In this document: positions 20,594 to 22,772 of the stretch, piece by piece
Layout: each line of letters starts with the position of its first letter
Numbering within the stretch: position 1 is the stretch's first letter
Virus record (IMG/VR): IMGVR_UViG_2690316311_000019
From: a virus
Lineage: Duplodnaviria > Heunggongvirae > Uroviricota > Caudoviricetes
DNA length: 64,000 nucleotides
Reading direction: 5' to 3' (one strand)
Translations under genes and position numbers: made by a program
Notes under the pieces: model-generated
The model's input: the letters and a program-made list of their open reading frames with translations, nothing else
Database searches by the model: none
What the model was told of the DNA's origin: nothing

Positions 20594-20825
20594 ACAGAAC
20601 GAAAAAGCTATCGCTCAAATTGCTGATTATATCCCGCGTGCGTGCCGGGGTATGCAGTTGCAGGAAGCCAAAGCGCGCCTGGAGAAAAAAATTGCGCTCT
20701 ATATTGATGACGGCTGTGATGCTGCCGTTCTTAACGCGGCGTTCGCACCAGCTCTTAACAGTCATACTCGGGAGTCTTTTTTTTCGTGCATCGAAGCGCA
20801 ACTCCGCAAAGGAGGCAGCCAGTGA
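20586..20825 (+). CDS. Small hypothetical protein ending KGGSQ
   Basis: ORF; stop overlaps GTG start of next gene. Confidence 0.45.
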   Translation: MFKQNEKAIAQIADYIPRACRGMQLQEAKARLEKKIALYIDDGCDAAVLNAAFAPALNSHTRESFFSCIEAQLRKGGSQ

Positions 20826-21523
20826 GCGAAATTAATTACCGGGCACTGCGTGAGATAGCAAAACAGGCAACACAGGGCGAATGGGTCGCATTTATTTCGC
20901 CGGGTACTGGTACGTATGCGGTGCACACGCCCGGTGATGAACGATGTGAAGACGTTATCAAATGGACCGGCTTTGATGGACAGAAAAATGCAGAGAACAA
21001 CGCTCGTCATGTTGCCGCGTTCAACCCAAAGGTTGCACTGGAGCTGCTTGGTGAAATTAAGTGCTTGGAGGACACAAATATTGATGCCACGTGCCGAATT
21101 TCAGAGCTTGAGACTAATCTCGCGGCGCTGGTGGCAGAGAACGCCGGGCTGAAACACGCAATGGCCGTAACTCTTGAGCATGTGTCGGTCACGGATGCAG
21201 GGCAGGCTGGTGTTGCTGCAATGATTATCAACGATGCCCTACACCACAGCGAAACTCCAGCTACCGATGCTTTTCTGGCTGAAATTCGTGCGGAAGCACG
21301 CAACGAGGGGATTAACTATACCGCCAGCCGTCTTGCTGCTGCGTTCAATCACGGATTTATCAATAAGTCTTTGCGTGAAGTTTTCGACGTTACACGCATG
21401 ATTTTGTCAGCGAAAGAAGAGTTGGCTAATGAACCGTACCCGATTGATGGCCTGTCTGGTGAATATGCGGAGAAATCCCTTGAAGAATGGGCGGAACAGA
21501 TTAGCAAAGGAGGCAACCAGTGA
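20822..21523 (+). CDS. Ead/Ea22-like protein, paralog 1
   Basis: SEINYRALRE...AAFNPKVALELL N-terminus shared with the paralog at 22002; GTG start after AGGAGG. Confidence 0.6.
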   Translation: MSEINYRALREIAKQATQGEWVAFISPGTGTYAVHTPGDERCEDVIKWTGFDGQKNAENNARHVAAFNPKVALELLGEIKCLEDTNIDATCRISELETNLAALVAENAGLKHAMAVTLEHVSVTDAGQAGVAAMIINDALHHSETPATDAFLAEIRAEARNEGINYTASRLAAAFNHGFINKSLREVFDVTRMILSAKEELANEPYPIDGLSGEYAEKSLEEWAEQISKGGNQ

Positions 21524-22005
21524 CTTTACATGCAGCAATCCTCGACATGTGCTGTGGCAGTCGCATGTTCTGGTTCGATAAGAAGGACGACCGGGCGATA
21601 TTTAGCGATATCAGAAAGGAAGAGCACACATTGTGTGATGGACGACGGCTGATAATTAGCCCTGACCTGATAGCAGATTTTCGTGCATTACCATTTGCAG
21701 ACGCATCGTTTCCGATTGTTGTATTCGACCCTCCGCATCTTGAGCGTGTTGGTGATAACGCCTGGATGGGAAAGAAATATGGACGGCTGAATAAAGATAC
21801 CTGGCGTGATGATTTGCGGCAGGGATTTAAAGAAGCCTTTCGTGTGTTGTGGCCATACGGCGTTCTGATTTTTAAATGGAATGAAACGCAAATACCTGTT
21901 CGCCAAATATTGGCACTGACCGACAGAAAGCCTGTTATCGGTCAACGAACAGGAAAGGGTGACAAGACCCACTGGATTATTTTTATGAAGGAGGGCAACC
22001 AGTGA
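21520..22005 (+). CDS. Small SAM-dependent DNA methyltransferase-like protein
   Basis: Motif I-like ILDMCCGSRMFWF and DPPH motif. Confidence 0.55.
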   Translation: MTLHAAILDMCCGSRMFWFDKKDDRAIFSDIRKEEHTLCDGRRLIISPDLIADFRALPFADASFPIVVFDPPHLERVGDNAWMGKKYGRLNKDTWRDDLRQGFKEAFRVLWPYGVLIFKWNETQIPVRQILALTDRKPVIGQRTGKGDKTHWIIFMKEGNQ

Positions 22006-22772
22006 GCGAGATTGACTATCAGGCGCTGCGTGAAGCAGCAGAGAAAGCAACTAAAGGATGCTACATCGTAGGGCATACATCGGGCAATCAGCATGAGAAT
22101 ATAACAGGAGTTTTTGTTTGTCAAAAATGGAAAGGAGAACCCGGTGGCGTAATTGCAGAATGTCATGTTAACTGCCTGGTTGAAACAGATGCTCAGGCTT
22201 ACGCAAACGCTGAATTTATTGCTGCCTTTAATCCAAATGTTGCGCTGGTGCTTCTGGATGAACGGGAAAGAAACCAGCAATACATCAAACGCCGCGACCA
22301 GGAGAACGAGGAGATTGCGCTTACGGTTGGGAAGCTGCGTGTTGAGCTTGAAGCAGCAGAGAACAACCTTATTGATAGTGAATGCCATGTTGCTGAACTG
22401 GAAGAAGCTCTACGCGATAAGCAGGCGTTACTTGAAGCCTCAGAAAAGCGCAACGCAAAATTACAAAGCGAGAATGCATACATCCGCAACCGGTACAAAG
22501 AACTGGACCTATTAATCGGGAAAAACATTCTGGTCATGCAGGCTGCCATTATCGAATGGCAGGCAACTGGCGACGCTAAGAGCGGACTAGCATGGATTTA
22601 TAACACACTGTTTGGCCCTGGCGAATTACCGGACGAATCTGAGAAAGATGCTCAGGCCTACTTTAATCGCAAATATGCACCGATTGACGAAAAGCTTATG
22701 GCGCTTCACAAGTGGTTTTGGGAACAAAGTGAAGCCGAGCGCGCCGCTGGCATTCGCATCAAAGGAGAGTGA
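22002..22772 (+). CDS. Ead/Ea22-like protein, paralog 2
   Basis: SEIDYQALRE...AAFNPNVALVLL N-terminus; coiled-coil C-terminus. Confidence 0.6.
   Translation: MSEIDYQALREAAEKATKGCYIVGHTSGNQHENITGVFVCQKWKGEPGGVIAECHVNCLVETDAQAYANAEFIAAFNPNVALVLLDERERNQQYIKRRDQENEEIALTVGKLRVELEAAENNLIDSECHVAELEEALRDKQALLEASEKRNAKLQSENAYIRNRYKELDLLIGKNILVMQAAIIEWQATGDAKSGLAWIYNTLFGPGELPDESEKDAQAYFNRKYAPIDEKLMALHKWFWEQSEAERAAGIRIKGE

Follow-up and report, generated by a model that had tools for sequence, protein, structure and literature searches.

The locus considered here lies in a 64,000-nucleotide stretch of DNA from a Caudoviricetes virus (IMG/VR record IMGVR_UViG_2690316311_000019; the whole stretch is called the window). 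It raises the question of why three consecutive gene junctions repeat nearly the same short string, and what is done by the small methyltransferase-like gene that two of these junctions enclose between a pair of Ead/Ea22-like genes. Judged from its sequence, the region is an array of accessory early genes of the kind known from the lambdoid exo-xis or 'ea' region, here carried on a P1-like (Punavirus) phage-plasmid. We consider it probable that the repeated string is a reused coupling linker bounding a swappable cassette, and that this cassette encodes an orphan methyltransferase, most likely one acting on DNA.

The repeated junction in the window

The three junctions lie on the plus strand at 20808-20825 (AAAGGAGGCAGCCAGTGA), 21506-21523 (AAAGGAGGCAACCAGTGA) and 21988-22005 (AAGGAGGGCAACCAGTGA), and each carries the 18-nucleotide linker AAAGGAGGCARCCAGTGA or a variant of it with one extra base. 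At junction 1, a gene for a 79-residue protein (20586-20825) ends in ...RKGGSQ* and is followed by the first Ead/Ea22-like gene, Ead1 (20822-21523, 233 residues). At junction 2, Ead1 ends in ...SKGGNQ* and is followed by the methyltransferase gene (21520-22005, 161 residues), which in turn ends in ...KEGNQ* at junction 3 and is followed by the second Ead/Ea22-like gene, Ead2 (22002-22772, 256 residues); all four genes are on the plus strand. At all three junctions, the Shine-Dalgarno sequence AAGGAGG is followed by a spacer of six nucleotides and then by GTGA, in which the TGA stop codon of the upstream gene overlaps the GTG start codon of the next. A Shine-Dalgarno sequence placed 5-9 nucleotides before a start that overlaps the upstream stop is the layout expected of coupled genes, and it was found at each of the three, which suggests that translation is coupled across the linker. 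The exact core common to the three junctions is the 12-mer GGCARCCAGTGA.

A preliminary description, made from the sequence alone, had reported three consecutive genes with related C-termini, a near-identical junction and an overlap of TGA and GTG, and these observations hold at the coordinates given above. The shared string that it proposed is right for junctions 1 and 2 and needs correction for junction 3, where one additional G is inserted into it. Owing to this insertion, the first two codons there read the Shine-Dalgarno bases in another frame (K-E-G rather than K-G-G). The same description had started the first Ead gene at 20786, the first GTG of the open frame. We place the start at the GTG at 20822, since RefSeq begins the gene there, the Pfam Ead_Ea22 match runs from residue 2, and the resulting N-terminus MSEINYRALRE parallels MSEIDYQALRE of the second Ead protein. 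Against conservation at the peptide level, the encoded ends KGGSQ, KGGNQ and KEGNQ differ in sequence, and the conservation of the junction is at the level of nucleotides.

When up to three mismatches were allowed, the pattern occurred three times in the 64-kb window, against 0.15 occurrences expected, and none of 100 shuffled sequences reached three. A fourth copy of the 12-mer core (GGCAGCCAGTGA) is present on the minus strand at 58279-58290. Because it is in-frame coding sequence (QEMAASEKA) within an open reading frame (ORF) of 995 residues, and has neither a Shine-Dalgarno nor a stop context, we take it to be a chance match.

Junction reuse and the methyltransferase cassette

We scanned viral contigs for the exact 18-mer and found at least 120 stretches carrying it, 119 of which were usable sites and were analysed further; gene families were defined as clusters of the 30 residues before and the 30 residues after the junction. 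Across these sites the 18-mer joins at least 25 upstream families to at least 26 downstream families in at least 74 combinations. Many of the downstream genes are of the Ead type (MS-E/K-I-N/D-Y-Q-A-L-R-E...), and at least eight unrelated N-termini are also found there, including that of the methyltransferase (MTGHAAILDMCCGS...). On the upstream side, the 79-residue gene type (upstream cluster 8) is followed through the 18-mer by at least eight different downstream genes. Among the matches listed, some sites have no open frame upstream of the 18-mer. The same matches comprise 105 distinct 138-mers, in which the mean pairwise identity is 0.58 in the 15 nucleotides upstream of the 18-mer (usually coding for ...AAQLR) and 0.56, 0.51 and 0.45 in the three successive 15-nucleotide blocks downstream, and is about 0.30 beyond positions -33 and +45.

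Two control junctions from the same operon, 23272-23289 (GAAGGAAACGCGGCATGA) and 24126-24143 (CCGCAGGAGGCGAAATGA), were analysed identically. Both are widespread in viral contigs and promiscuous on one side only, the conserved side being formed by DUF551-type genes with MxTIT... starts or by ...HWMPLPEP ends. The junction ending at 23289 joins 3 upstream families to 10 downstream families in 11 pairs (99 sites), and that ending at 24143 joins 14 upstream families to 4 downstream families in 21 pairs (58 sites). Considering that the controls are also promiscuous on one side, module boundaries at gene junctions are general in this region, and the Ead junction is the extreme case. The idea that the similarity of the junctions is no more than that of an ordinary ribosome-binding-site context, which the preliminary description had entertained, fits neither the recurrence of the exact 18-mer between unrelated genes of related phages nor the far lower promiscuity of the controls. 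By sequence and comparison, the 18-nucleotide string is shown to behave as a conserved, nucleotide-level linker that recurs at many gene boundaries of enterobacterial temperate phages.

The breakpoints and neighbours of the methyltransferase gene were counted in 80 viral loci selected for carrying this gene. Alignments of these loci to the window start in a cluster at 21497-21544 and end at 21977-22007; for 11 methyltransferase-bearing loci the match begins at 21508, and the ends fall mainly at 22004-22006. An Ead1-like neighbour is present in 24 of the 80 loci, an Ead2-like neighbour in 7 and a nuclease-like gene in 3. Five or more different 3' gene ends stand before the 18-mer that precedes the methyltransferase gene, and other loci have a different junction of the same design. 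Phage Ro157c2YLVW is 99.4% identical to the window up to 21523, where the identity stops, and has a DUF4752 gene after the same GTGA, while in phages encoding Shiga toxin (Stx) 1a the match starts at 22001.

An empty site was also found. Two loci, L124 and L184, show 95-96% identity to the 3' end of Ead1 and 88-89% to the 5' end of Ead2, with a single junction between the two. In a three-way alignment, the window equals this empty site plus the methyltransferase gene and one copy of the junction, so that junctions 2 and 3, the left and right boundaries of the insert, are direct repeats flanking it (12 nucleotides exact, GGCAACCAGTGA). Given the promiscuity of the junction and the existence of the empty site, the methyltransferase gene and a single copy of the junction together behave like a portable cassette. 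The earlier suggestion that the junction could drive modular recombination has gained from this the promiscuous linker, the coinciding breakpoints and the empty site; the recombination itself we infer from comparison.

Most likely, cassettes are gained, lost and swapped through homologous recombination or recombination at short homologies. It would take as its substrate the linker together with its partly conserved flanks, about 15 nucleotides upstream (...AAQLR KGGNQ*) and about 30-45 nucleotides downstream (MS-E/K-I-N/D-Y-Q-A-L-R-E), and phage recombinases of the Red, RecET or Erf type, or those of the host, could act on this substrate. Selection would then retain the products in which the reading frames and the coupling are preserved. 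Lambda Red and RecET are able to recombine short or diverged sequences (PMC2327257).

Two models of phage mosaicism are relevant here. In the boundary-sequence model, which PMC2327257 and PMC3233612 attribute to Clark et al. 2001 and their work on HK620, modules are exchanged at short conserved sequences common to a subset of phages; in the alternative model, random illegitimate joints are filtered by selection (PMC2327257; PMC3233612). The comparative pattern at this locus fits the former. As far as those accounts describe the conserved boundary sequences of lambdoid phages (the modular theory of Susskind and Botstein; Clark et al. 2001), the linker resembles them in being a short sequence at gene boundaries that is common to a subset of related phages, with unrelated modules around it and coinciding breakpoints. 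It differs from them in being a complete coupling signal, made up of Shine-Dalgarno sequence, spacer and GTGA, and in its location on a P1-like plasmid prophage.

On the other hand, the repeated junction could be a by-product of conserved Ead/Ea22 coding ends and of selection for coupling, with no role in recombination, the methyltransferase gene having landed there by an unrelated illegitimate event. Ead proteins do share MS(E/K)I(N/D)YQALRE starts, many upstream genes share ...AAQLRKGGNQ ends, AGGAG-N5-7-ATGA overlaps are present also at other junctions of the same operon, and the literature treats selection on random joints as a valid general model. We nevertheless regard this explanation as unlikely, considering that the exact 18-mer stands before the methyltransferase and at least eight other non-Ead N-termini, that it is found after non-Ead genes and after regions without an ORF, and that it is kept when the upstream reading frame differs. 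Moreover, two copies bound the cassette and a one-copy empty site exists, and the control junctions are much less promiscuous. Some features of the data weigh against a recombining linker all the same. A coincidence of breakpoints with gene boundaries is expected also from selection on random illegitimate recombinants, the alternative set out in PMC3233612; the 18-mer was the search key, so that its 100% identity in the pairwise analysis is by construction; and the viral contigs sampled come mostly from E. coli and other enterobacterial prophages, whose lineages are not independent.

With a linker that bounds a swappable cassette, the locus offers a clean and quantified case of the movement of an accessory gene between temperate phages, here from lambdoid prophages to a P1-like plasmid. 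Because the swap point doubles as a ready-made translation signal, the case bears on the question of targeted versus random recombination in phage mosaicism.

Several further observations concern the junction and the gene at its boundaries. Frame changes concentrate at the junction: in one assembly, a 279-residue in-frame fusion of methyltransferase and Ead runs through it (P0002), and in L010 and L015-L017 (locus position ~4470-4495) the methyltransferase frame passes through GTGA and stops 9 nucleotides later. The first 90 nucleotides of the methyltransferase gene are found, at 91% identity, inside ead/Ea22-like genes of phage ev099 (NC_049953.1, 29491-29579) and of avian pathogenic E. coli chromosomes (H153, H154), which indicates that some recombination joints lie within the methyltransferase coding sequence and not at the junction. 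In E. coli O145:H28 strain RM13514 (L378, chromosome 5073326-5078810) and in O157:H7, copies of the gene lie in a degraded prophage beside an IS600-disrupted HD hydrolase gene, a 3'-5' exonuclease gene and a PrtN-like gene; these chromosomal copies have no adjacent Ead gene.

The 161-residue methyltransferase and its target

For the protein encoded at 21520-22005, sequence motifs and a structural model establish the minimal Rossmann fold of a class I methyltransferase, of the kind dependent on S-adenosylmethionine (SAM). The SAM-binding-like and DPPH motifs noticed earlier are present as LDMCCGS (residues 8-14, motif I) and DPPH (residues 70-73, motif IV). Class I enzymes are recognised by a glycine-rich motif I and an acidic residue ending strand 2, and both are found here, the latter as the invariant D30. 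Among 44 sequences with 40-91% identity to the window protein, D30, R32, P48, D70-P71-P72-H73, W95, E105, R108, V109, L110, K119, W120 and P138 are invariant, and L8, D9, C12 and G13 are nearly so (D9, C12 and G13 at least 90% conserved). In this family the fourth residue of motif IV is His, where the canonical (D/N/S)PP(Y/F/W) has an aromatic residue. The order of the motifs, I before IV, and the DPPH sequence suggest that a nitrogen is methylated, a (D)PP(H) motif IV being typical of enzymes whose target is an exocyclic or amide nitrogen.

The AlphaFold2 model is confident (mean predicted local distance difference test score, pLDDT, 93.1; predicted template modelling score, pTM, 0.89) and shows a complete seven-stranded core, so the methyltransferase fold on which the preliminary description depended is indeed predicted. 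Foldseek placed Trm11, Bud23, PH0226 and an rRNA m4(2)C synthase best and M.TaqI, HemK/PrmC and CamA lower, with template modelling (TM) scores of 0.55-0.61, and a library of viral folds gave a single close homologue, which is uncharacterised. A search of solved structures with the single protein sequence found no significant match, and a profile search of the same structures matched PH0226 (E 4e-5), with an RsmD-like protein and Trm-G10 non-significant (E 0.3-0.7). In the model all 161 residues belong to the catalytic core and no target-recognition domain is seen, and the extensions found in homologues have no domain in common. We had considered N-terminal extensions as a hidden DNA-binding or recognition domain and rejected this: they are heterogeneous, include one weak HTH_23 match and no shared Pfam domain, and look like read-through or fusions. 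Family members of 248 residues carry a C-terminal extension that is absent from the window protein.

The protein matches phrog_954 ('DNA methyltransferase', E 2.2e-87) and the PADLOC models MTase_II (8.5e-74) and oMTase (4.4e-50); since PADLOC and PHROG models are built from predicted proteins, these matches show family membership and not activity. No Pfam or NCBIfam threshold is reached by the 161-residue protein, which scores 17.7 bits with Methyltransf_11 (cut-off 21.2) and 15.9 bits with Methyltransf_25 (cut-off 27). In the family, Methyltransf_11 is matched at E <= 0.05 by 42 of the 44 members (best E 3.7e-10), and 11 of the 44 give weak N6_N4_Mtase matches around motif IV. Clustering divides the family into 7705 groups at 90% identity and into about 2000 at 50%; the usual length is 155-175 residues. 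The gene is present in 945 of 5426 complete E. coli genomes (17%), nearly always on the chromosome, with 7 plasmid copies only. Relatives at 47-60% protein identity occur in 253 phage records, with hosts including Streptococcus, Listeria, Enterococcus, Staphylococcus, Vibrio, Acinetobacter, Gordonia, Porphyromonas and Bacteroides. From the usual length and this wide occurrence, 161 residues is the full length of the protein and not a truncation. The shortness of the frame and its position below every Pfam gathering threshold might have suggested a chance ORF or the decayed remnant of a larger methyltransferase; this reading is effectively refuted by the thousands of homologues of the same length and with the same ends across phyla, by the presence of every family-invariant residue and by the confident, complete, seven-stranded fold.

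As for the target, we hold at about even chances that the enzyme is an orphan, low-specificity DNA methyltransferase (N6-adenine or N4-cytosine) active in lytic growth. The gene would stay silent in the lysogen and be switched on along with the early genes upon induction or infection, and low-specificity methylation of replicating phage DNA would protect it from restriction; such anti-restriction methylation is the most likely role of the enzyme. No restriction endonuclease partner was found: the neighbours are Ead genes, and PADLOC gave no restriction-enzyme match. In distant phages, the gene adjoins other DNA methyltransferase genes (Streptococcus Javan522, Gordonia Eviarto, Bacteroides BKO1-TP3), follows RecE, RecT and DnaD in Listeria A118 and follows the replisome organizer in phiEf11. 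In lysogens, methyltransferases of prophages are often silent, and once expressed they are often promiscuous (PMC4659465; PMC5778455). Of the earlier proposal of an orphan DNA-modifying enzyme, the methyltransferase fold and the missing restriction partner are borne out; DNA is the most likely target, and RNA a less likely one.

Other evidence speaks against a DNA target or is neutral. The nearest solved structures are tRNA and rRNA N-methyltransferases (Trm11, TrmN, RsmC, Bud23) and generic small-molecule enzymes; the protein has neither a target-recognition domain nor Tyr, Phe or Trp as the fourth residue of motif IV; strain RM13514 has an intact copy of 162 residues, and its published single-molecule real-time (SMRT) methylome contains only GATC, CTGCAG and minor DTGCAG, although the gene may be silent in the lysogen; and the label 'DNA methyltransferase' given by PHROG, PADLOC and phage records reflects annotation and not tests. 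The enzyme could act on RNA (a base amine of rRNA or tRNA), on an amide in a protein or on a small molecule, perhaps jointly with a partner subunit. Trm11, which forms m2G10 in tRNA, and the m4(2)C rRNA synthase are among its best structural neighbours, the profile match to PH0226 points the same way, and the identity of 47-60% across phyla is as might fit a universally conserved target. There is also a precedent, reported in a preprint, of a small Stx-phage 'DNA methyltransferase' (MT-A70) that methylates 16S rRNA with a partner (bioRxiv 10.1101/2023.09.20.558713). However, the clustering with DNA methyltransferase, replication and recombination genes in distant phages and the weak N6_N4_Mtase matches at motif IV argue for DNA, silence in lysogens is normal for prophage DNA methyltransferases and could explain the RM13514 methylome, and the flanking genes are not conserved, so that no fixed partner is evident. 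On balance we consider RNA or another non-DNA target rather unlikely; the probability that remains may include a requirement for a partner subunit.

A restriction-modification-like pair formed by the methyltransferase and a PD-(D/E)xK-like gene for 171 residues at 22774-23289 was rejected on co-occurrence. The ORF has the motif PDAMGF...LIEAKCS and weak matches to a 'DNA repair protein' PHROG, yet the two genes occur together in 3 of 80 methyltransferase loci, Stx1a phages have Ead2 and the 171-residue gene without the methyltransferase, an Ead gene separates the two, and there is no Pfam or PADLOC match to a restriction enzyme, which makes the pair very improbable. It is possible, but doubtful, that this family of phage methyltransferases of about 150-170 residues, whose members share 47-60% identity between phages of Firmicutes, Actinobacteria, Bacteroidetes and Proteobacteria, is not a sequence-specific DNA methyltransferase (having a universally conserved target such as rRNA or tRNA, or methylating DNA without regard to context in lytic growth). 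A separate possibility, likewise doubtful, is that the linker defines a recombinase-independent gene-cassette system in the accessory early region of enterobacterial phages; its exchange site would contain the Shine-Dalgarno sequence, the stop and the start, and a gene swapped in would be expressed immediately.

Compared with orphan prophage DNA methyltransferases (M.EcoGI/M.EcoGII and phage Dam homologues), the enzyme is likewise phage-borne, without a restriction enzyme, placed among early genes, expected to be silent in lysogens and equipped with a (D/N)PPx motif. M.EcoGI and M.EcoGII, however, are beta-class proteins of 349 residues in which DPPY precedes the target-recognition domain and FxGxG (PMC5778455), whereas the window protein has 161 residues, motif I before motif IV, no target-recognition domain and His in motif IV; the identity of these non-specific enzymes with ours was rejected. 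The small RNA and protein N-methyltransferases (Trm11, RsmC/RsmD, TrmN, PrmC) are similar in having motif I and then motif IV, in the size of the core and in giving the best structural matches. They differ in that identity is 13-18% and that the window protein lacks extra substrate-binding domains (THUMP and others) and is encoded among genes for the early phase and for replication of phages. The Stx-phage enzyme M.ECPA8_3172P/PNB-2, the 16S rRNA methyltransferase of the preprint, is also small, has its gene in the early-left accessory region of a temperate phage of E. coli and was first annotated as a DNA adenine methyltransferase, but it belongs to an unrelated family (MT-A70, PF05063). We rejected it as the same enzyme: gp5 of phage PA8 is an MT-A70 protein, and BLASTP between the two gave E 5.6.

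Every component of the locus is of a known kind and already annotated, and the observation itself is confirmed. We found no literature on a DPPH motif or on WP_000172331, and this very widespread minimal methyltransferase family, found in about a sixth of complete E. coli genomes, is apparently uncharacterised. Current understanding would be changed only if the target of the enzyme proves unexpected.

Setting of the array and flanking genes

Over the 2.7-kb block 20586-23289, the window matches plasmid p2010C_5028-1 of E. coli 2010C_5028 (NZ_CP074880.1, 98.7 kb) at 100% identity, the window coordinate being the coordinate of that record minus 254. Around the array are markers of a P1-like phage-plasmid, namely a PmgS-like gene, an S24 peptidase gene, phd/doc, a DUF968 gene and a terminase gene, and the close relative vB_EcoM-Ro157c2YLVW, itself P1-like, is classed as Punavirus. 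RefSeq labels the genes in order as a hypothetical protein of 79 residues, an ead/Ea22-like protein of 233, a class I SAM-dependent methyltransferase of 161 (WP_000172331.1) and an ead/Ea22-like protein of 256. They form part of a long, tightly packed, co-directional array. Terminator-like sites with strong stems (more than 8 pairs) are absent from the plus strand over the interval from about 19.5 to 27.1 kb, which suggests one operon; promoter-like sites were fewer than in shuffled sequences and were uninformative. Parts of the 2.7-kb block are present in 2991 of the 5426 complete E. coli genomes and also in 434 records of phages, most of them Stx-converting, and the whole arrangement was found in three plasmids only.

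The preliminary description had placed the middle gene between two Ead/Ea22-like paralogs, and both flanking proteins exceed the gathering score of 27 bits for Pfam Ead_Ea22 (PF13935). Ead1 (WP_001290014.1) scores 96.6 bits (E 2.5e-27) and matches phrog_368 (E 3.9e-70); Ead2 (WP_032342526.1) scores 132 bits (E 2.9e-38) and matches phrog_250 (E 1.1e-94). The two are 30% identical, and this identity is confined to about 140 aligned N-terminal columns. Ead2 consists of the Ead N-terminal domain, a coiled-coil-like middle and a C-terminal part that differs from that of Ead1. Members of the family are familiar from the exo-xis region in lambda, P22 and Stx phages, and Ea22 of lambda and of phi24B has a pro-lysogenic effect (PMC7093339; PMC10789677). 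Like lambda Ea22 and P22 Ead, the window copies combine a conserved N-terminal domain with variable C-termini; unlike them, they lie in a P1-like element, where their similarity to each other, at 30% identity, ends with the N-terminal domain. Residues 145-243 of Ead2 (22434-22730) match the PADLOC model PDLC02890 'DpdH', of the Dpd 7-deazaguanine DNA-modification system (E 1.6e-36, over 99 of the 127 positions of the profile). Possibly the two have a domain in common; alternatively, prophage proteins may have gone into building the model.

The 79-residue protein upstream of junction 1 (WP_000476202.1) matches phrog_1344 over its full length (E 2e-52). Downstream of Ead2, the 171-residue ORF matches phrog_9263 over its full length (E 2.6e-121). 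Its frame is uninterrupted, yet RefSeq splits it into a 'frameshifted' pseudogene and a coding sequence of 110 residues; copies of 171 residues with 96-98% identity to it are present in L017 and L040. A comparable difference in annotation is seen upstream of the array, where two overlapping ORFs at 19586-19891 and 19842-20306 are treated by RefSeq as one frameshifted hypothetical gene and in Ro157c2YLVW as two separate genes.

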